From an uncultured Microbacterium sp. (GTDB lineage: Bacteria; Actinomycetota; Actinomycetes; Actinomycetales; Microbacteriaceae), in NCBI RefSeq assembly GCF_945952435.1, contig NZ_CAMFHZ010000006.1, positions 83,183 to 147,182 on the forward strand: a stretch of DNA of 64,000 nucleotides. Direction: 5' to 3'. Every line of letters starts with the position of its first letter. Position 1 is the first letter of the stretch. Positions 35,644-43,795 of the stretch are shown piece by piece. The notes under the pieces were generated by a model, which saw only the letters and a list, made by a program, of their open reading frames with translations, made no database searches and was not told the origin of the DNA. The translations under genes and the position numbers were made by a program.

Positions 35644-36534
35644 TCAGTCCCAGAGCGGATCCTGCGGAACCGCGAGATAGCCGGCGCGGAGCTCGTCCCG
35701 CAGGCTCGGTCGGGACGGATGCCAGCCGAGACGCTCCCTGGCACGGTCGGCTCCGGCGTGCTGGTCCAGCAGGAGCAGTTCGGCGAGCGCCGGATGGATC
35801 CGCGGCGCGGCCTCCGCGACCGTCTCCGCCTGCGTCGCGCCACCCACCGCGGACGCGGCGGCCTCTGCGAGTTCCCCCACGGTCGGGGCGTCGTCGTTCG
35901 CCGCGATGTAGAGCTCGTTGTTGTGCGATTCGGCACCGACGATCCGCACATACAGGTCGGCGAGGTCGTCCACGTGCACCGTAGCCCAGTGCTGTGCGCC
36001 ATCGCCGAGGTATGGGACGACCGTCGATCCGTCGCTCGTCCGCGCATCGTCCACGAAGCGCCGCGGGATGCCCTGTCCGTGGCCGTAGACCACCCCGGGG
36101 AAGACGATGACGGAGCGGACCGACTCCTGCGCCATCAGGCTCTTCTGCATGTCCACCATCCACGACACCGCGGCGGGCGGACGCTGCGGGGACCGCTCGG
36201 TGAGGTCGCGGCCGGATCCGAACGTCCAGAGGCTGCTGGTGTAGATGAACGGCTTGTCCCCGTTGGTCAGCCCCGGCGTGATCGCCGCGATGAACTCGGC
36301 GTCGCCCGCGTGCGACGTGGCGGTGTGGATCACGCCGTCCGATTCCAGCGCGAGCGCGTCGAGCGTGCGGGAGTCGTCCTCGTCCGCGAAGAACGCCTCC
36401 GCCCCTGCCGCCTGCACCTCCGCCGCCTCGTCCTGGTCCTCGACGAGCGCGGTCACCCGATAGTCGGCCGCGAGGAGAGCGTTCATCACCCCCCGCCCGA
36501 GGAAGCCGGTGGCTCCGGTCAGCAGCACGCTCAT
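35644..36534 (-). CDS. NAD-dependent epimerase/dehydratase family protein (atypical/extended SDR)
   Basis: 296 aa. N-terminal VLLTGATGFLGRGV. Confidence 0.75.
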   Translation of the reverse strand: MSVLLTGATGFLGRGVMNALLAADYRVTALVEDQDEAAEVQAAGAEAFFADEDDSRTLDALALESDGVIHTATSHAGDAEFIAAITPGLTNGDKPFIYTSSLWTFGSGRDLTERSPQRPPAAVSWMVDMQKSLMAQESVRSVIVFPGVVYGHGQGIPRRFVDDARTSDGSTVVPYLGDGAQHWATVHVDDLADLYVRIVGAESHNNELYIAANDDAPTVGELAEAAASAVGGATQAETVAEAAPRIHPALAELLLLDQHAGADRARERLGWHPSRPSLRDELRAGYLAVPQDPLWD

Positions 36535-36722
36535 CTTGTCCTCCTCGTGGGCCCTCGCGGTCCGGTCTGCGTCCGACGCTATCCGCCGCCCGGCCCGGCG
36601 ACAAGGGTCGGATCCCCGTGCCGGAACGACGCGCCGTGGCGTCCGCTGGTCAACGGATCGCCCGCGGAGTACCGTCGCTCCCAGCGGGCGCGCCCGGCCC
36701 GCCCGGAACGAGGGAGTGCAGA

Positions 36723-37385
36723 ATGAGCGATCACGCCGACAGGGTCTCCGCCGCGCTGATGGGGTCGCCGGCTCCCCGAGACCTCGCCTGGACGGACTTC
36801 GTCATGCTCTGGAAGGAGCGTGCGGACGAAGTCGAGGAGGAGTCGGGAGATCGCCTGGCCGTGCGCATGAACGGCCACCGGGTCGTCTTCCGGCGCCCCC
36901 ACGACGGCGTGGTCTCGATCCAGGACGTCGAGGACGCCCGCCACCTGCTGACCGCGCAGCCGGTCGAGAAGGGCGAAGGACGTCTCCTCGCCGTCACCAT
37001 GGACGACGAGCGGGCCCGCATCTGGGATTTCGATCTCGACGCGACGACGGTCCAGGACGAGACGCACACCCTGCGGGACGGGGATCCGCGGGCGCATCAC
37101 CTGCGCACGGTCGAGCGGCACACCGGGCGCGACGACGAGCGCGACCTCGTGCACTACTTCGACGAGGTGGCCGATCGGATGCAGACCGAGTTCGCGGGCC
37201 GCCGATTCGTGCTGTTCGGTCACGGCGACGGCACGTCGGATGCGGCCGCGCTCTTCGCCGCGCGTCTGCGCAAGGAGCATCCGCTCGTCGCGGGCGCGAT
37301 GATCGCCGAGGAGCGGATCGACCTGAGCGCCGCCACCCCTGCCGACATCGAGGCGGCGGCGCAGAAGGCCGCCGCCCGGGGCTGA
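36723..37385 (+). CDS. Hypothetical two-part cytoplasmic protein (220 aa), no confident family assignment
   Basis: Lies in ORF 36618..37385(+). ATG 36723 is preceded by gagggag. Third-codon positions are mostly G/C. The C-terminal part (ARIWDF ... HYFDEVADRM ... RFVLFGHGDG) loosely recalls host-attachment/eRF1-like proteins. Confidence 0.6.
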   Translation: MSDHADRVSAALMGSPAPRDLAWTDFVMLWKERADEVEEESGDRLAVRMNGHRVVFRRPHDGVVSIQDVEDARHLLTAQPVEKGEGRLLAVTMDDERARIWDFDLDATTVQDETHTLRDGDPRAHHLRTVERHTGRDDERDLVHYFDEVADRMQTEFAGRRFVLFGHGDGTSDAAALFAARLRKEHPLVAGAMIAEERIDLSAATPADIEAAAQKAAARG

Positions 37386-37692
37386 CCGGCCCTCACCGCA
37401 ACGGGCCGTATTCCGCGGCCGCGGCCGCGACGCGGTTGTTGTAGTGGCCGGAAGCAGGCGATCAACGCTCGGCGCCGAGCACGTCCGTTCGACACCCGCA
37501 GCGCAGGGTGCCCCGGGCGGCGAGATGTCCGCGGCCGTGCCGGTGGGCGCGGGCGAGGGACGCCTGCGCGGATCCTCCGCTCGGGCGTTCCGCGGAACGG
37601 CGAGACCCGGAGCGCCCGGGCGGGCGGGAGATGCGTCGTGCGTGCGTGCTCGGCATCTCGTCACCACCCTCGCGTCTCATCGCGTCATCCCC

Positions 37693-37727
37693 GTTATTTA
37701 GCATGATTCTCGTTTTCGTTAATGATC
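37693..37727. promoter_or_regulatory. AT-rich island with promoter-like hexamers and a degenerate Zur-like half-site
   Basis: gttatttagcatgattctcgttttcgttaatgatc. TTAGCA-N17-AATGAT on the + strand. Minus-strand cgagaatcatgctaa matches 10/15 of the box at 40000. Confidence 0.3.
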
Positions 37728-37798
37728 CGGCCCGGCGATGCAACTCCTGTCAAGTCGAGTGCGACGCAGCGATTCACCGCGAAGGATGCGGCTGTTAT

Positions 37799-37813
37799 TG
37801 AGAACGGTTGTCA
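37799..37813. promoter_or_regulatory. Zur-type (Fur-family) palindromic box upstream of the COG0523 gene
   Basis: tgagaacggttgtca = TGAgAAC-G-GTTgTCA, within the extended palindrome ttattgagaacggttgtcagtaa. It lies 13 nt upstream of ATG 37827. Confidence 0.7.
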
Positions 37814-37826
37814 GTAAGCTGGCGGG

Positions 37827-38852
37827 ATGATCCTGCCTCGCGTTCCGGTCGTCGCCGTGACGGGGCATCTCGGCGCGGGTAAGACGAGCCTGCTCAACCA
37901 CCTGCTGCGCGCGGAGGGCGCACGGATCGGCGTGGTCGTGAACGACTTCGGCACGCTGAACGTCGACGCGGCCCTGGTCACCGGTCAGATCGACGAGGCC
38001 GCGGCCATCTCCGGAGGTTGCGTGTGGTGCCTCCCCGACGCCGGCGGCTTGGACGAGGCCCTGGAACGCCTCTCCCACCCCCGCCTCCGCCTGGATGCGA
38101 TCGTGGTGGAGGCCAGCGGCGCGGCGGACCCCGTCGTCCTGGCGAGACTGATCCGGTTCAGCGGCGCCGAACGCGTCAGGCCCGGCGGCGTGGTCGAGGT
38201 GATCGACGCGGTCGAGCACTTCACCACCGTCGACACGCGCGAGGCCCCGCCCCTGCGCTATCGCGCCGCGACCCTCGCCGTGATCGGCAAGAGCGACCTG
38301 CTGCCGCCGGACGAGCGCGCACGCACGGTCGAACGGATCCGACACCGCATCCGGGAGAGCAATCCACGGATCCCCGTCCTCCTCGCTCGCCACGGCGGCA
38401 TCGACCCCGCACTGGTCTTCGATGTCGCGGAGCACGCGGATCCCGCCGACCAGCTGCCGATCGCCGCCCTCCTGCGGGAGGAGGCGCACGACCACTCGCC
38501 CGGGCACGCGCACGCGCAGGCGACGTCGATCGCGCTGCGCGGGCCCGTCGCGCCCGGAGCCCTGGTCGATTTGCTCGAAGATCCGCCGCCAGGCGCCTAC
38601 CGGATCAAAGGACGCGTGCGCGTTCGTACTCCGAGGGACGATCGCGGGTACGTGGTCAACGTCGTCGGGCGCATGCTCCACATCGCCGCGTTGCCCGAGC
38701 CGCCGCGCGACGGAGAGCTCGTCGCCATCGGGCCGATGCTCGACCCCGTCGAGGCGCATCGGCGGCTGGCCGCCGTGCTCGACGCTCCGTCCGCGGCCCC
38801 CGATGCCGCCGGGCTCAGGAGACTCCGGCGGCATCGACGCCTCAGCGAGTGA
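37827..38852 (+). CDS. COG0523/CobW-family G3E GTPase (putative zinc metallochaperone)
   Basis: 341 aa. P-loop GHLGAGKTS, EASGAADP, GKSDL. His-rich linker EEAHDHSPGHAHAQ. CobW_C-like domain YRIKGRVRV. The metal motif is GCVWC instead of GCxCC. Confidence 0.85.
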   Translation: MILPRVPVVAVTGHLGAGKTSLLNHLLRAEGARIGVVVNDFGTLNVDAALVTGQIDEAAAISGGCVWCLPDAGGLDEALERLSHPRLRLDAIVVEASGAADPVVLARLIRFSGAERVRPGGVVEVIDAVEHFTTVDTREAPPLRYRAATLAVIGKSDLLPPDERARTVERIRHRIRESNPRIPVLLARHGGIDPALVFDVAEHADPADQLPIAALLREEAHDHSPGHAHAQATSIALRGPVAPGALVDLLEDPPPGAYRIKGRVRVRTPRDDRGYVVNVVGRMLHIAALPEPPRDGELVAIGPMLDPVEAHRRLAAVLDAPSAAPDAAGLRRLRRHRRLSE

Positions 38853-38928
38853 CGTGCCCGTGCCCCCGGTGCGGCGATCCGTCAGGGGACGCGCGCGGCG
38901 TAGGCGACCGTCGCCTTCGTCGACGCGA

Positions 38929-39819
38929 TCAGGTGCGGGACGCGCGAGCGATGGACTCGATCGACGCGTCCAGGGTGCGGGTGAACTCGTCGTCGCTCTG
39001 CGACACGGCCAGGCCGTCGAGCAGCGCACGGCTGAAGCTCGCGATCACGCCGGGATTCCGCGCCAGACGTGCGTTCGCCTCGTCCCGGCCGTACCCGCCG
39101 GAGAGCGCGACGACGCGCGCGACCCTCGGATGGTCGACGAGCTCCCCGTAGAAGCCGTCGACGCTCGGCAGGGTGAGCTTGACGGCGACCCTCCCCGCCT
39201 CCGGGAGCGCGTCCAGCTGCGCGAGGAGCTGCGCTTTCAGGAGTTCCTCCGCCCGTTGCTTGTCGGGGATGCGGATGTCGATCTCCGGTTCGAGGATCGG
39301 CACGAGTCCCGCCGCCAGAACGTGCTCGGCGACCTGGATCTGCTGCGCCACCACCCTCGCGATGCCGATCGGGTCGGCGGCATGGACGAGCGACCGCTCC
39401 TTCGTGCCGAACACGCCGCGGTCCGCGGCGTGGGCGAGCAGACCGTCGAGATCGTTGATCTCACGCATCGTCTGCACGCCGTCCCGGGGATCGTCGAGTC
39501 CGTGATCGATCTTCAGGAAGGGCAGGATCCCCTTCACCTTCCACAGGTACGCAGCCACGCCGATCCCGTCGACCGTCCGATCGAGGGTGCCGTCGAACAG
39601 GATCGCCCCCAGGATGCGATCCCCGGTGAAGGCCGAGCTGGTGAGGACGCGGGAGCGGGCGGCGTGGATGCGCTCGAGCATCTCCTCCTCGTCGCGATAC
39701 TGCGACTCGTCGACGCCATAGCGCCGGAGCGCGTCCGGCGTGCTTCCCCCGCTCTGGTCGAGCGCGGCGATGAAGCCCCTCCCCTTCTCGAACCGGGCGA
39801 GCTGGGCGGCGTCGGGCAT
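38929..39819 (-). CDS. Class I (Schiff-base, metal-independent) fructose-bisphosphate aldolase
   Basis: Lies in ORF 38929..39861(-). MPDAAQLARFEKGRGFIAALDQSGGSTP, PFLKIDHGL, FGTKERS, LVPILEPEI, VAVKLTLP and VALSGGY align along the whole length with staphylococcal-type class I Fda. An alternative GTG start is at 39861. Confidence 0.85.
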   Translation of the reverse strand: MPDAAQLARFEKGRGFIAALDQSGGSTPDALRRYGVDESQYRDEEEMLERIHAARSRVLTSSAFTGDRILGAILFDGTLDRTVDGIGVAAYLWKVKGILPFLKIDHGLDDPRDGVQTMREINDLDGLLAHAADRGVFGTKERSLVHAADPIGIARVVAQQIQVAEHVLAAGLVPILEPEIDIRIPDKQRAEELLKAQLLAQLDALPEAGRVAVKLTLPSVDGFYGELVDHPRVARVVALSGGYGRDEANARLARNPGVIASFSRALLDGLAVSQSDDEFTRTLDASIESIARASRT

Positions 39820-39863
39820 CGGCAGGTGCTGGGGGCCTCGGCGGGCCGGTCTGGCAACCACGC

Positions 39864-39986
39864 TCAGCCCTGTCGGCCTTTGAAGCGCGGGTTGAGCTTG
39901 TTGATGACGTAGACCCGCCCTCGGCGGCGCACCACCTGGGCTCCGGGCTGATTCTTGAGGGATTTGAGGGACGCACGGACTTTCAT
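39864..39986 (-). CDS. rpmJ: Ribosomal protein L36, cysteine-free (C-minus, zinc-independent) paralog
   Basis: Not in the ORF track (40 aa). Read by hand: [40 protein letters not shown]. It has no Cys or His zinc ligands, like YkgO-type L36. SD aaggag lies upstream. Confidence 0.85.
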
Positions 39987-39999
39987 GATGACTCCTTAC

Positions 40000-40014
40000 T
40001 GAGAATGATTATCA
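40000..40014. promoter_or_regulatory. Zur-type palindromic box in the divergent L36 / COG0523-like promoter region
   Basis: tgagaatgattatca = TGAgAAT-G-ATTaTCA. It lies 13 nt from the L36 start codon and 48 nt upstream of ATG 40063. Confidence 0.75.
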
Positions 40015-40062
40015 TTCGCTAGCATACGAGGCACCAGACAAAAGATGAAAAGAGGGACGCGC

Positions 40063-41094
40063 ATGGAACCGGTCGGCGTGATCGCGGTGGTGGGCGCAGG
40101 CGACACGGAACGAGGCGGCTACGCGACCGCACTGGCGCACCGGACGAACCGGGCGCTCATCCCCGCGTCGCGGCTGTCAGGATCTCCCGATCCAGCGCAG
40201 GAGGCCGCCGTGCTGGCGTCCTGGACCGACGTCCCGGAGGGCGTCGTGGTCGACATGCCCGACGAGGTGCCCGCGGGCGAGATCATCGGCACCTTCGTCG
40301 ACGTCGAGCAGGGGAGCACCCTCCTCGGCATCGTGTGCGTCGTCGACGCGGCACGAGTGCGCGACGAACTGCGACGGGTGGACGACGTGCCGCTGAGGGA
40401 CAGGGACAGCGGTATCGCCGCCCTGCGGGAGTCGCGCGCACGGCTCACCGCGTGGCAGATCGAGTTCGCCTCGACGATCGCGCTGGTGAACTGGTCGACT
40501 CTGGCCGCCTCGGAGCTGTCGCTCATCGCGTCGCTGCTGAGTCATCTGAGCCCCCGCGCGCGTCTACGCTTGCACGGCGGTATCGTGGAGCGCCTCGTCT
40601 CGGACGACGCCTACGCGGTGGAACAGGACCGCCCAGGATGGATGTGCCTTCTCAACGAGAGCTTCGATCCCCCGCTGACGGATCCCCGGGTGTCCGCCCT
40701 GCGCTACGAACAGGTCCGCCCGCTGCATCCGGGGCGCCTGGCCCACCTCCTGGACGCGCGGATCGAGCCGGGAGAGTTCGGCACCGTGGTGCGCTCCGCC
40801 GGATTCTGCCGTCTCGCGAGCCGCGGCGGCATCGTCGCGCAATGGGAGCACGTCGGGTCCGTGATCTCCCTCAATCCGGTCGCCGTCGACGCGCGACTCG
40901 ACGATGCGGACGAGATGCTCTCCCTCGGACAGGACCTCGCGTTCGTCGGGATCGACCTGGACCGGGACGGTCTCGTCGCCGCGCTGGACGAGGCCGCACT
41001 CACCGATGCCGAACTCGCCGAGGGCCCCGAAGCCTGGGCGAGGTTCGCCGACCCGTTCCCCACCTGGGCGACGGCATCCGATCGGCAGGACTGA
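40063..41094 (+). CDS. Degenerate COG0523/CobW-like protein (predicted pseudo-GTPase) retaining a CobW_C-like domain
   Basis: ORF 40045..41094(+). ATG 40063 is preceded by agaggga. The P-loop position reads VVGAGDTERG (no Lys-Ser/Thr). There is no CxCC. The NKxD position reads VNWS. The C-terminal part (VRSAGFCRLASRGGIVAQWEHVGSVISL ... LAFVGIDLD) resembles CobW_C. Confidence 0.65.
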   Translation: MEPVGVIAVVGAGDTERGGYATALAHRTNRALIPASRLSGSPDPAQEAAVLASWTDVPEGVVVDMPDEVPAGEIIGTFVDVEQGSTLLGIVCVVDAARVRDELRRVDDVPLRDRDSGIAALRESRARLTAWQIEFASTIALVNWSTLAASELSLIASLLSHLSPRARLRLHGGIVERLVSDDAYAVEQDRPGWMCLLNESFDPPLTDPRVSALRYEQVRPLHPGRLAHLLDARIEPGEFGTVVRSAGFCRLASRGGIVAQWEHVGSVISLNPVAVDARLDDADEMLSLGQDLAFVGIDLDRDGLVAALDEAALTDAELAEGPEAWARFADPFPTWATASDRQD

Positions 41095-41201
41095 ACGCCC
41101 CGGCGCGTGTGAGGCACGAGACGCGGCAGGGGTGCGTCGCGCACGACGCACCCCGGGCGTGCAGGAGCGTTCGACGCGCTCCGCGAACGGTTCCGACCGA
41201 C

Positions 41202-41846
41202 TCAGTGCTCGTCGTAGTGGTCGCCGTGCTGCGCGTGCTTGTGGCCGTCGTGGAGATAGTCCACGTGCCCGTCGTGCTCGACGGTGTCGTGACCGCAGTC
41301 GGCGCCGTGCGCATGGTCGGCGGGCGTGTGCTCCGCCACCGACTCGTGCTCGTCGTAGTGGTCGCCGTGCAGCGCGTGCCGGTGCGTGCCGTGCACGTAG
41401 TCGACATGGTCGCCATGAGGCACTGCCTCGTGGCCGCAGGCCGCCCCGTGCTCGTGCTCCGCGGCGGTGTGCTCGGCGTGGACGTCGGTGTCGGTCATGA
41501 TGACCCTTTCTCTATTGATGGGCGGTGCGGAGGGTGACGCTTGCGGAATCGCGGCCTGAGTTTCCGCAGTTTCCCGGACGTGCGCGAGCGCATCGGCGAT
41601 GACGTGGCTGACATGCAGATCCGCGAGCCGGCAGATGACCTCCTTGCCGCTTCGCTGCGATGTGACCAGCCCCGCCTGGCGCAGGGTCCGCAGATGCTGG
41701 GACACCAGCGGCTGCGACATGCCCGTCGCCTCGACCAGCGCTCCGACCGTCCGCGGCTCCTGCCCGATCGCGTGCAGAAGCTCCAGTCTCGACGCACTGC
41801 CCAGCACTTTGAAGAGTTCGGCAGCGGCGGCGATTCCCCGATTCAT
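41202..41846 (-). CDS. ArsR/SmtB-family metalloregulator with alpha5-type metal site, fused to a C-terminal tandem His/Cys-rich domain
   Basis: Lies in ORF 41202..41918(-). ATG 41846 is preceded by ggagg. HTH LFKVLGSASRLELLHAI ... SQPLVSQHLRTLRQAGLV. ADLHVSHVIADALAHVRE fits DxHx10Hx2E (SmtB D104/H106/H117/E120). No stop occurs before the tail, which has 25 His and 2 Cys in 94 aa. Confidence 0.8.
   Translation of the reverse strand: MNRGIAAAAELFKVLGSASRLELLHAIGQEPRTVGALVEATGMSQPLVSQHLRTLRQAGLVTSQRSGKEVICRLADLHVSHVIADALAHVRETAETQAAIPQASPSAPPINRERVIMTDTDVHAEHTAAEHEHGAACGHEAVPHGDHVDYVHGTHRHALHGDHYDEHESVAEHTPADHAHGADCGHDTVEHDGHVDYLHDGHKHAQHGDHYDEH
41205..41486. repeat. Tandem duplication (2 x 141 bp) encoding the 47-aa His-rich unit
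   Basis: The 25-mer gtgctcgtcgtagtggtcgccgtgc occurs at 41205-41229 and 41346-41370. The protein units both end HVDYxHxxHxHAxHGDHYDEH. Confidence 0.85.
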
Positions 41847-41910
41847 GATCTTTTCCTCCATACGACCATACATATAAATATATTGCAATGTGTCGATAGA
41901 GTTGGGAATC

Positions 41911-41952
41911 GTTCTCACTCGGGGCGCCGACGTCGAAGCCCCGAGTGAGAAC
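41911..41952 (-). terminator. Terminator hairpin downstream of the ABC-F gene
   Basis: Perfect 14-bp stem: gttctcactcgggg (41911-41924) pairs with ccccgagtgagaac (41939-41952). Confidence 0.6.
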
Positions 41953-41986
41953 GAGTCGCCGGTCGAGGCGGTCCCGGCGCAGGCGC

Positions 41987-43795
41987 TCAGCCGAGTCGCT
42001 CTGTGAGGTCGAACCAGCGGAGCTCGAGCTCCGAGACCTCGTCCTCCTGCGCCGTGATCGCCTTCATCCGCTCCCCCAGCCCCGCGTAGTCGGACTGGTC
42101 GTGGTCGGCGAGCGCGTGCTTCGCCTTCTCGACCTCGCCGTTCAGCTTCTCCATCCGCCGTTCGAGCGCCGCGAGCTCCTTCTCCGCGGCACGCCGATCC
42201 GCCCCGGTCAAGACGGCGCTGCCGGACGCGGCGGCGGGATCCGGGCGCCCTGCAGACGCGTCGGGGAGCTGTGCCCGCATCCGCAGATACTCATCGACGC
42301 CGCCCGGGAGATGCCGGAGACGCCCCGAGCCATCCGGTCCCGGAAGAATCGCGTACTGCTGATCCGTCACCCGCTCCAGGAAGTAGCGGTCGTGCGAGAC
42401 GACGAGCAGAGTGCCCGGCCAGGAGTCGAGCAGGTCCTCGATCGCGGCCAGCATGTCGGTGTCCATGTCGTTCGTCGGCTCGTCGAGGATCAGCACGTTC
42501 GGCTGGTCGAGCAGCACGAGCAGCAGCTGCAGGCGCCGCTGCTGACCGCCCGACAGATCCTTGACCGGAGTGGACAACTGCGCCGACGAGAAGCCCAACC
42601 GTTCGAGCAGCTGCCCCGGGGTGAGCTCGGCCGCCTTCGATCCCGTGCCGAAGGTGTAAGTCGTGCGGAGGCGCCCGATCACGACCCGCACGGGCTCGTC
42701 CCACACGTCCTGCAGCTCATCGAGGCGCTGTGTGAGCGTGCGCACCTGCACGGTCTTCCCGTGCTTGACCCGTCCGGAGGTCGGCGCGACCGTGCCGGAC
42801 ACGAGTCCCAGCAGCGTCGACTTCCCCGCACCGTTGACGCCGAGGATCCCGGTGCGCTCGCCCGGCGCGATCCGCCACTCGACGTCGCGGAGGACGTCCC
42901 TGTCCCCGAAGCGCACGCCCGCGTCGACGAGGTCGACGACGTCCTTGCCCAGGCGAGAGACGGCGAGCGACTGCAGAGCGATCCGATCGCGGATCTCCGG
43001 GACGTCGGAGATGAGCGCGTTGGCGGCGTCGATCCGGAACTTCGGCTTCGAGGTGCGGGCCGGGGCGCCGCGGCGCAGCCAGGCGAGCTCCTTGCGGGCG
43101 AGGTTCTGACGCTTCGCCTCCGTGGCGGCGGCCATGCGGTCGCGCTCGACGCGCTGCAGGATGTACGCGGCGTATCCGCCCTCGAAGGGCTCGACGATCC
43201 TGTCGTGCACCTCCCAGGTCTCCGTGCAGACCTCGTCGAGGAACCAGCGGTCGTGCGTCACGACGAGCAGGGCGCCCTGGTTCGCCGGCCAGCGCCTCTT
43301 GAGGTGAGCGGCGAGCCACGTGATGGCCTCGACGTCGAGGTGGTTGGTCGGCTCGTCGAGGGCGAGCACGTCCCAGTCGCCGGCGAGGAGCCGGGCGAGG
43401 GCGACGCGGCGCCGCTGGCCGCCGGACAGGTCCGCGACCGAGGCGTTCCAGTCGAGATCGCCGACGAGCCCCTCGATCACATCGCGGATCTTCGCGTCAC
43501 CGGCCCACTCGTGCTCCGGCGCCTCTCCGACGATGGTCCGCCCGACCGTGAGCGCATCGTCGAGCACGTCCGCCTGATCCAGGACGCCGATCGTGGTGCC
43601 TCCGCGCACGGTGACCCGGCCGCGGTCCGGCTCGCGCCGCCCGGCGAGCATCGCGAGGAGGCTGGACTTGCCGTCGCCGTTGCGGCCGACGATCCCGATC
43701 CGATCGCCCTCCTCGATCCCGAGGGTGAGGGAGTCGAAGACCACGCGGGTGGGGAACTCGAGGTGGAGGCCTTCGGCCCCGAGGAGATGTGCCAT
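41987..43795 (-). CDS. ABC-F family ATPase (Uup/EttA-like, no transmembrane domain)
   Basis: 602 aa. Two ABC cassettes (GRNGDGKSS and GVNGAGKST, with LSGGQRRRVALARL and LSGGQQRRLQLL) and a C-terminal coiled-coil. Confidence 0.9.
   Translation of the reverse strand: MAHLLGAEGLHLEFPTRVVFDSLTLGIEEGDRIGIVGRNGDGKSSLLAMLAGRREPDRGRVTVRGGTTIGVLDQADVLDDALTVGRTIVGEAPEHEWAGDAKIRDVIEGLVGDLDWNASVADLSGGQRRRVALARLLAGDWDVLALDEPTNHLDVEAITWLAAHLKRRWPANQGALLVVTHDRWFLDEVCTETWEVHDRIVEPFEGGYAAYILQRVERDRMAAATEAKRQNLARKELAWLRRGAPARTSKPKFRIDAANALISDVPEIRDRIALQSLAVSRLGKDVVDLVDAGVRFGDRDVLRDVEWRIAPGERTGILGVNGAGKSTLLGLVSGTVAPTSGRVKHGKTVQVRTLTQRLDELQDVWDEPVRVVIGRLRTTYTFGTGSKAAELTPGQLLERLGFSSAQLSTPVKDLSGGQQRRLQLLLVLLDQPNVLILDEPTNDMDTDMLAAIEDLLDSWPGTLLVVSHDRYFLERVTDQQYAILPGPDGSGRLRHLPGGVDEYLRMRAQLPDASAGRPDPAAASGSAVLTGADRRAAEKELAALERRMEKLNGEVEKAKHALADHDQSDYAGLGERMKAITAQEDEVSELELRWFDLTERLG

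Follow-up and report, generated by a model that had tools for sequence, protein, structure and literature searches.

The DNA analysed here (the window) is a stretch of 64,000 nucleotides from an uncultured Microbacterium sp. (contig NZ_CAMFHZ010000006.1, positions 83,183 to 147,182), and this text concerns the genes that lie between 37.7 and 42.0 kb of it. These genes form four predicted transcription units: a COG0523 GTPase gene (COG0523-1); an operon of type-B ribosomal protein L36 (L36B) and a class I fructose-bisphosphate aldolase; a gene for a COG0523-like pseudo-GTPase (pseudo-COG0523); and arsR with a His-rich coding segment. In the survival of bacteria under zinc starvation, including starvation imposed by a host, a central part is played by Zur regulons, Cys-free ribosomal paralogues and COG0523 proteins. 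A first-pass annotation of this DNA had listed six elements at 37690-41990, namely two 15-bp Fur-family palindromes, a COG0523 GTPase with intact motifs, a Cys-free L36 paralogue, a class I aldolase, a second COG0523-like gene with destroyed GTPase motifs and an SmtB-type repressor with a His-rich tail, and all six were found at those positions. Judged by its sequence, the region is probably a cluster of zinc-limitation (Zur regulon) transcription units adjoining an ArsR/SmtB-type metal-sensor operon. Independent metagenome assemblies contain contigs with the same gene order, and five of these contigs cover the cluster from end to end. The principal features are the following:

37695-37715: weak Zur-like site of uncertain status (17.3 bits), about 100 bp upstream of box 1
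37799-37813: predicted Zur box 1, TGAGAACGGTTGTCA, an exact pattern match (28.4 bits)
37827-38852, plus strand: COG0523-1, with PF02492 and PF07683 matches
38929-39819, minus strand: class I fructose-bisphosphate aldolase (NF003784), second gene in the L36B operon
39864-39986, minus strand: type-B ribosomal protein L36, L36B (NF002021 and PF00444)
40000-40014: predicted Zur box 2, TGAGAATGATTATCA, an exact pattern match (32.0 bits)
40063-41094, plus strand: pseudo-GTPase of COG0523 fold, 343 amino acids, PF07683 match only
41202-41846, minus strand: open reading frame of the ArsR/SmtB part plus the His-rich segment, convergent to pseudo-COG0523
41202-41498, minus strand: predicted His/Cys-rich metal-binding module, fused in frame to arsR, with its own ATG at 41496-41498
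41499-41846, minus strand: ArsR/SmtB winged-helix repressor part (PF01022 and NF033788)

The assignment to Zur is carried by the two boxes. The pattern TGAGAAYGRTTRTCA has exact matches in the window only at these two sites (0 expected, from 100 shuffles). For an independent measure, a 21-bp matrix was built from 71 distinct orthologous sites located between L36B and the COG0523-like gene in other genomes, this organism being left out because circularity was to be avoided. With this matrix (consensus TAATGA(G/T)AAnnnTTATCATTA; training sites 20.5-42.6 bits), no sites in the 64 kb other than boxes 1 and 2 reach 20 bits, the next best scoring 17.3 and 16.3 bits. Exact matches and matrix scores therefore bear out the two palindromes of the first-pass annotation. 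Box 1 is followed by TAAGCT and then by the ATG of COG0523-1, and therefore overlaps the core promoter. Box 2, which begins 14 nt ahead of the L36B start codon, adjoins the L36B ribosome-binding site and overlaps a promoter-like -10 element (TATCAT) of pseudo-COG0523 (promoter-like site 39988-40015); it is common to the two divergent promoters. This position is shared by relatives (about 70 loci, from Microbacterium, Leucobacter, Nesterenkonia, Nocardia, Saccharopolyspora, Arachnia, Gordonia and others), most of which have the box right after the L36B ribosome-binding site, beginning 13-16 nt ahead of the start codon. The same box lies 37 nt before znuA in the L36B-znuACB-zur operons of the M. 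barkeri group (a box precedes znuA in 8 loci), and a strong box lies upstream of the COG0523-1 orthologues at three of the loci compared (L019, L021 and L036). The fixed position before L36B and the recurrence before znuA and COG0523-1 orthologues uphold the proposed link to the Zur regulon. The box is also found in relatives before an operon of a Pyr_redox_3 flavoprotein and an SBF-family transporter.

The boxes also agree with characterised operators. Of the 15 positions of the S. coelicolor footprint consensus TGAAAATGATTTTCA, 13 are matched by box 2, whose flanks, TA(A/C)T...ATT(A/C), fit the 21-bp form, and both boxes are similar to C. glutamicum Zur operators verified by electrophoretic mobility shift assay (EMSA), such as TAATGATAACGGTTATCATTT (PMC2823685). 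In these two organisms, as here, the boxes are 21-bp palindromes (10-1-10 or 7-1-7) that overlap core promoters, one box serves divergent genes, and the targets include znuACB, COG0523 genes and RpmJ paralogues; however, the local consensus in our loci prefers TGAGAA...TTATCA, and a class I aldolase and a pseudo-COG0523 are not among the targets described there (PMC2823685). By all the tests possible short of wet work, the two boxes are predicted Zur operators, and repression by Zur at both, with derepression in low zinc, is very probable. In zinc-replete cells, Zn-Zur would occupy boxes 1 and 2 and block three promoters, those of COG0523-1, of L36B-aldolase and of the divergent pseudo-COG0523; when zinc is scarce, Zur would come off the DNA. 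The weak site at 37695-37715 scores below the weakest training site and lies in an AT-rich patch, TTATTTAGCATGATTCTCGTTTTCGTTAATGA, around 37690-37735, at the 3' end of a 440-bp gene-free stretch (37386-37826). Since an Rfam scan of 36000-43000 gave two sub-threshold chance matches only, no riboswitch or small RNA accounts for this gap before COG0523-1.

L36B is a protein of 40 amino acids that contains neither Cys nor His. It scores 80.9 bits on the NCBIfam model for type-B L36 (NF002021; cut-off 70) and also matches PF00444, which agrees with the Cys-free paralogue announced earlier. The identical protein occurs in many genomes, always beside a pseudo-COG0523 gene. As established for its family, L36B is a zinc-free replacement, and it would take the place of the zinc-ribbon L36 when zinc is scarce. 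A Zur-repressed Cys-free L36 paralogue is likewise encoded by E. coli ykgM-ykgO (L31B/L36B; PMC11672702); in contrast to that operon, here an aldolase gene lies downstream of L36B, the pseudo-GTPase gene is divergent and there is no L31B.

The aldolase gene begins 44 nt after the L36B stop codon, and both genes belong to one operon. Its product is a PRK05377-type class I enzyme (NF003784, 422.4 bits; cut-off 392) whose closest PDB match, 2iqt, aligns end to end (E 2e-89); the identity given by the first-pass annotation is confirmed by both, and the metal independence that it added is predicted by homology. Gene order was compared throughout at 80 species-level loci. An L36B-aldolase operon behind a Zur box was found in 8 of these 80 species, all of them close Microbacterium relatives, and neither L36B nor a Zur box was found near more distant aldolase homologues (52-60% identity; 0 of 18 metagenome loci). 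A general linkage of class I aldolase relatives to L36B or to a Zur box is therefore rejected; being confined to close relatives, the linkage points to a recent recruitment of the aldolase into the regulon. A related exchange is known from S. aureus, in which the metal-independent class I aldolase FdaB replaces the class II enzyme under manganese starvation (PMC9973326). There, as is proposed here, the class I enzyme serves as a backup for a metal-dependent class II aldolase in metal starvation; however, the limiting metal is manganese and the ArlRS two-component system contributes to resistance to manganese starvation (PMC9973326), whereas the aldolase described here shares an operon with L36B behind a Zur box, an arrangement by which zinc control is implied. 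A Schiff-base aldolase would sustain glycolysis and gluconeogenesis when the class II enzyme, presumed to be present in the genome, is under-metalated. We consider it rather likely that the aldolase is such a zinc-sparing substitute. We found no report of a Zur-controlled class I aldolase in the searchable literature, whose coverage does not extend to subscription papers, and the substitution appears to be undescribed for Zur there, as the earlier view that it is not a textbook arrangement had anticipated. If true, a class I aldolase in a Zur-boxed operon would add an enzyme of central carbon metabolism to the known zinc-sparing substitutions.

The gene divergent from L36B encodes a COG0523-like protein in which the sole Pfam match is CobW_C (PF07683, E 1.3e-8). 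In the window protein the Walker A segment reads VVGAGDTER, Walker B is deleted, NKxD is replaced by LVNW, CxCC is missing and RxKG reads RSAG. The destruction of the GTPase motifs, which had been noticed in this one gene, is family-wide. In an alignment of 117 homologues the P-loop reads VxAVVGxCxPER, there is no CxCC region, a deletion has removed the ExSG segment, LVNW stands at NKxD and RS(A/S)G at RxKG; GFCR, PLHP and DPFPxW are conserved across the same homologues. A hidden Markov model search of 1.84 billion representatives returned 152 proteins at E <= 1e-30, and neither Walker A nor CxCC is present in any of the 87 best-scoring ones (bit score of at least 211). These motif states mark pseudo-COG0523 as a true pseudoenzyme, not a decayed copy. 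Its nearest canonical relatives obtain their best score as ZigA. A PDB sequence search gave no match, and the AlphaFold2 (AF2) model (mean predicted local distance difference test, pLDDT, 85) matched best the structures of YjiA, 4ixm and 1nij (E ~1e-12). In 73 of the 80 species, L36B and pseudo-COG0523 are divergent and have one box in common. There is a large and stable family of COG0523-derived pseudo-GTPases tied to L36B in many actinobacterial genera, which bears on COG0523 and Mrf-like function at the ribosome. One metagenome-assembled genome (MAG), VLC_086, has two pseudo-COG0523 genes (L018 and L024).

Mrf (MSMEG_6069 / Rv0106), the MPY recruitment factor, is under Zur control, has its gene among those of C- ribosomal proteins and binds to ribosomes when zinc is low (PMC6094098, PMC7431043, PMC2770081); according to Haas et al., Rv0106 lacks Walker A and has a CXSC motif. 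Pseudo-COG0523 resembles Mrf in being COG0523-like without Walker A or canonical CxCC, in its predicted Zur regulation and in adjoining the gene of a Cys-free ribosomal protein, and in both cases a canonical COG0523 protein coexists in the regulon (ZigA with Mrf/Rv0106 in mycobacteria). The active/pseudo COG0523 pair, which had been thought to be outside textbook arrangements, was therefore already known as ZigA and a Walker-A-less Mrf/Rv0106 beside alternative ribosomal protein genes. Pseudo-COG0523 differs from Mrf in length (about 340 against about 400 amino acids), in the deletion of the Walker B segment and the lack of any Cys motif, and in its partner, L36 being a protein of the 50S subunit whereas Mrf acts on the 30S subunit. 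By analogy with mycobacterial Mrf, the P-loop-less paralogue would not hydrolyse nucleotide and would most likely work on the remodelled ribosome or together with it; we put this forward tentatively, as a possibility that falls somewhat short of the balance of evidence, the alternative being a zinc-binding or partner-protein role unrelated to ribosomes. If it does work in this way, zinc-starvation ribosome remodelling and hibernation control would be extended to most Actinomycetota.

COG0523-1, by comparison with its homologues and aligned to YjiA, has the expected nucleotide motifs: GHLGAGKT (Walker A), VEASGAADP (Walker B) and GKSD (G4). The C-terminal RxKG arginine finger, as defined in PMC13001444, is also present (YRIKG, within the PF07683 match). 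However, the zinc motif is CVWC and not CxCC (GCVWC, codons 38013-38027; TGG at 38022-38024). Among its 120 closest homologues, which come from many actinobacterial genera (63-100% identity), the motif is C[LVIM]CC in 117 and contains Trp only here, and the change is present in all six independent metagenome contigs. As all three Cys of CxCC are zinc ligands in MigC and ZigA (PMC12208494), the description of this GTPase as intact holds for the nucleotide site and fails for the zinc motif. CVWC could be a natural loss- or change-of-function allele. A COG0523 GTPase of this kind would allot zinc to client proteins in scarcity, although its CxCC is damaged in this lineage.

The fourth unit encodes an ArsR/SmtB-type sensor (PF01022, E 4.6e-14; NF033788, 81 bits, cut-off 55). 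It has an alpha5 site, DLHVSHVIADALAHVRE, with D76, H78, H89 and E92, and no Cys-based site; the pattern DxHx10HxxE is invariant in 19 orthologues. Of the SmtB-type alpha5 repressor with a tail of 25 His that had been described, the alpha5 site and the 25 His after the alpha5 Glu were found, but the tail is a fused, formerly separate gene. The region upstream of arsR contains the following features:

41870-41892: conserved block, ACATATAAATATATTGCAATGTG, candidate ArsR operator plus core promoter, directly upstream of arsR
41903-41917 (21-bp form, 41900-41920): weak Zur-like box, TGGGAATCGTTCTCA (16.3 bits; two pattern mismatches)
41906-41957, minus strand: strong hairpin just past the ABC-F stop codon, the likely ABC-F terminator
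41987-43795, minus strand: ABC-F gene

The block is kept upstream of arsR in relatives and contains overlapping palindromes. The window has one copy (0 expected), as has each locus, and every copy lies upstream of arsR; as no second copy was found in the window or in the loci compared, the sole visible ArsR target is its own operon. Apo-ArsR would repress this operon through the candidate block, and metal binding would release it. In relatives the sequence upstream of arsR runs from the block, CACACATAAACAGATTGCAATGTGA, through TATACT to a weak Zur-like palindrome, TGAGAnnnnTTCTCA, after which a divergent Fur-family gene, about 50% identical to the Zur of znu operons, follows in 11 of the 80 loci. 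The weak box of the window is the orthologue of the box located between the -10 element and the ribosome-binding site of this divergent zur; the aligned sites from the arsR-zur intergenic regions of relatives include TGGGAAAGGTTCTCA and TGAGAGGGCTTCTCA. The window keeps the block and the weak box, and at the expected zur start it has the hairpin that ends the ABC-F gene (26-nt arms, 88% complementary; fold -51.4 kcal/mol, z = -5.7). One arm of this hairpin is the right half of the weak box. From this comparison, zur is normally part of the neighbourhood and has been lost from this site in the window lineage; the hairpin at the position of the relatives' zur suggests a rearrangement that removed it. 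In the open reading frames of the window that tblastn, Pfam and contig annotations covered, the search for Fur-family genes, ZnuA/ABC-3 and CDF proteins and P-type ATPases gave no match, about 8 kb devoid of called genes lying outside the Pfam scan; within that coverage the earlier statement that no zur, znuABC-type importer or exporter is visible holds.

An SmtB or Znr gene next to zur, with dual control of the promoter by both regulators, is known from Corynebacterium and Mycobacterium (PMC2823685, PMC7174638), and a sensor of this type beside Zur genes is therefore not the novelty that it had been taken for. In M. smegmatis and M. tuberculosis, Zur targets, including alternative ribosomal proteins and several CobW-like proteins, are likewise clustered on the chromosome, and the SmtB-type sensor is linked to zur with a Zur box in the sensor/zur promoter (PMC7174638). 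The arrangement described here differs in that arsR and zur are divergent in relatives instead of co-transcribed, in that zur is missing from the window, in that arsR is followed by or fused to a His-rich gene with no ZitA-type exporter target found, and in that L36B is the sole alternative ribosomal protein.

The His-rich module consists of two 47-amino-acid repeats, HxHGxxCGH-x4-HxDHxDYxHxxHxH-x2-HxDHYDEH, with 25 His and 2 Cys in all; the repeats are a tandem DNA duplication (41205-41336 and 41346-41477). In all 16 relatives examined, the His-rich part is a separate gene of 51 (one repeat) or 96-98 (two repeats) amino acids. Its start codon overlaps the arsR stop codon as ATGA in 12 of the 16 and lies at most 12 nt downstream in the others, mostly behind GGAG, which indicates a gene translationally coupled to arsR. 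In the window, the +1 frame still shows the ancestral stop in its context (...KGSS*), and a frameshift has therefore fused the two reading frames; by comparison with the 16 relatives, the fusion is limited to the window lineage. The ribosome-binding site and the ATG of the His-rich part are retained, so that a separate His-rich product can still be translated. The family comprises about 1,858 proteins from many phyla (among them Actinomycetota, Acidobacteriota and Proteobacteria) with the repeat HxHGxxCGH...HxDHxDY.H..H.H..H.DH.DEH. It has no Pfam or PDB match; the AF2 model, of mediocre confidence (pLDDT 67), is a beta-hairpin ladder, and Foldseek with this model gave nothing significant. The gene directly follows an ArsR gene in Chloracidobacterium, is divergent from an ArsR-ZIP/ArsP permease pair in an Acidobacteriota MAG and lies beside a Fur-family gene in another genome. 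In Pseudomonas sp. (L097-L100, 1-4351), it closes a row of genes for a Hexapep protein (gamma-carbonic-anhydrase-like), an amidohydrolase (dihydroorotase-like) and a second threonyl-tRNA synthetase; this row adjoins a TonB-receptor/ABC uptake system, we take it to resemble the Zur-type clusters of zinc-independent paralogues of Pseudomonas, and no obvious box was found in the 108-nt spacer read. A widespread, unannotated small His-rich protein is thus repeatedly linked to ArsR and Fur-family regulators.

In Synechococcus, SmtB, an alpha5-site ArsR/SmtB repressor, is paired with the gene of the small metal-sequestering protein SmtA. The arsR/His-rich pair is alike in joining an alpha5 ArsR/SmtB repressor to the gene of a small protein predicted to sequester metal; it differs in that the partner is His-rich, with one Cys per 47-amino-acid repeat, instead of a Cys-rich metallothionein, and is co-transcribed or fused instead of divergent. 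The small His/Cys-rich protein would buffer metal in the cytosol or hand it over, as a counterpart of SmtA that relies on histidine; in the window a frameshift has fused it to the sensor. We found no direct precedent for an SmtB-linked His-rich protein in the searchable literature.

The type of system is therefore well known, and three of its parts have never been characterised: the Zur-boxed class I aldolase, the pseudo-COG0523 family and the ArsR-linked His-rich family. In a joint reading of the last two, the ArsR-coupled family would be a histidine-based zinc buffer or hand-over protein of the cytosol under ArsR/Zur control, corresponding to SmtA of the SmtB-SmtA pair, and the P-loop-less COG0523 partner of L36B a nucleotide-independent, ribosome-associated factor of the Mrf kind; that both halves are right is doubtful. 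Several results weigh against reading the region as a single zinc-limitation system, and some of these bear on the two families themselves. Pseudo-COG0523 reaches 51.9 bits on the MRF model NF047431 (model positions 134-305; cut-off 375), as against 89.4 bits on ZigA, and no MRF-grade protein is present among its top 150 relatives. The analogy with Mrf therefore rests on parallel loss and on context, not on orthology. Orthology to Mrf was itself rejected: the query and 20 distant relatives, run on NCBIfam, all score higher on ZigA and none reaches the MRF cut-off. In Kocuria (L033, L057, L063, L065 and L074), pseudo-COG0523 has no adjacent L36B in 5 of 5 loci, which means that the pairing is frequent, not obligatory; the upstream Zur box is kept in 4 of the 5 (none of at least 20 bits in L063), and an unrelated same-strand gene precedes pseudo-COG0523 in L033, L057 and L065, where the upstream reading frames were checked. 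Metal-related neighbours are absent from 4 of 9 contexts of the His-rich gene outside Microbacteriaceae. Moreover, with a weak Zur-like box upstream of arsR, the arsR/His-rich operon could answer to both regulators, and this possible dual control blurs a simple reading as induced by excess, as at M. smegmatis smtB-zur (PMC7174638).

The identity of the metal is a further point of this kind, as alpha5 sites also occur in nickel and cobalt sensors and His-rich proteins are classic nickel binders. That ArsR is a Zn-responsive autorepressor controlling a His-rich buffer is an assignment for which the chances are a little under even, nickel or cobalt specificity being its main rival. The strongest form of this rival, that the ArsR/His-rich module serves NmtR/KmtR-like sensing and storage of nickel or cobalt and merely lies beside Zur genes, is unlikely but has to be taken seriously. 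The DxHx10HxxE pattern is common to zinc and to nickel/cobalt sensors, the His-rich Hpn and HypB tails bind nickel, no zinc exporter or other target is found nearby, and the operator block stands only upstream of arsR. Against it, arsR is divergent from a Zur-like gene in 11 loci with a Zur-like box in the common promoter, SmtB/Znr-zur pairing is a known zinc design in Actinobacteria, and in Pseudomonas the His-rich gene ends a row that, as we presume, belongs with zinc-independent paralogue clusters.

The same weighing has to include the gene order, for the five genes are not conserved as a block at the 80 loci. The first-pass annotation had suggested that they might represent a zinc system as a unit; when the comparison was made, only the divergent pair of L36B and pseudo-COG0523 proved stable. 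COG0523-1 lies within 10 kb in only 3 of the 80 relatives. The ArsR/His-rich genes directly follow the pseudo-GTPase gene in 13 loci, usually with zur divergent from arsR, and lie within 10 kb in 17; zur stands beside arsR in 11 and znuA is nearby in 8. No relative among the 80 has all five genes within 4.3 kb, M. marinilacus coming closest, with the set spread over about 8.3 kb together with zur and two further Zur-boxed genes. As the genes have no conserved joint packing, the island consists of regulon modules brought together compactly in one lineage and is not a conserved cassette. From these counts, and from the aldolase homologues at 52-60% identity that have neither L36B nor a box nearby, one might go further and hold that the adjacency is chance or merely historical, the genes independent and the island without functional meaning as a unit. 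This is improbable: of the four transcription units, all but arsR have a strong box at a conserved position, arsR itself is linked to zur in 11 relatives, and co-regulation needs no fixed gene order, a similar clustering of Zur targets being found in M. smegmatis (PMC7174638).

Of similarly low probability is the explanation that the fused ArsR-His reading frame and CVWC are sequencing or assembly errors, or mark decaying genes in a partly degenerate locus. Both features are unique to this lineage, and with zur also lost from the site, local decay is conceivable; but six metagenome contigs, assembled independently from different samples, carry the same sequences, both reading frames are full length with high third-position GC, and the His-rich part keeps its start signals. 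The natural arsR-His fusion and the CxCC-to-CxWC variant are instead ready-made genetic probes, and nothing at the locus overturns current models. Finally, it is very improbable that the palindromes are operators of another Fur-family regulator (Fur, Nur or PerR-like) and the cluster responsive to iron, nickel or peroxide: the consensus TGATAATGATTATCA also resembles the classical Fur box and more than one Fur-family gene lies near the loci in some relatives (two matches in L015), but the box precedes a Cys-free L36, znuACB-zur operons and COG0523 genes, the hallmark Zur targets, it fits the EMSA-verified and footprinted Zur sites, and for Leifsonia xyli, which also belongs to the Microbacteriaceae, RpmJ paralogues had been assigned to the Zur regulon by earlier comparative work (PMC2823685).

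The comparison of loci also yielded other arrangements of these modules. M. marinilacus (NZ_JAIJZW010000002.1) has two diverged copies of the whole module, that is of L36B divergent from pseudo-COG0523 and of His-rich-arsR divergent from a zur-like gene, about 55 kb apart (L019 and L045), and therefore two Zur-like paralogues. The Zur-boxed Pyr_redox_3/SBF operon of relatives (L019, 5959-8253; L020, 6998-9298; L023, 2955-5154; L034, 6508-8668; L045, 7564-9723) sits between COG0523-1 and the aldolase gene in L019 and L021 and is absent from the window; it may be likened to the Zur-regulated oxidoreductase/COG0523 pair cg0795/cg0794 of C. glutamicum. In the M. barkeri group (L008, L010, L012-L014, L052 and L075), L36B heads an operon L36B-znuA-znuC-znuB-zur-ArsP_1 permease-DUF1980 with two boxes, one before L36B and one before znuA; we know of no description of roles for ArsP_1 and DUF1980 in zinc uptake. 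Next to the ABC-F gene of the window, the segment 43789-45282 has a GC content of 0.62-0.67, compared with about 0.72 around it, and encodes a multi-pass membrane protein of 497 amino acids with no Pfam match; this segment is possibly acquired DNA.

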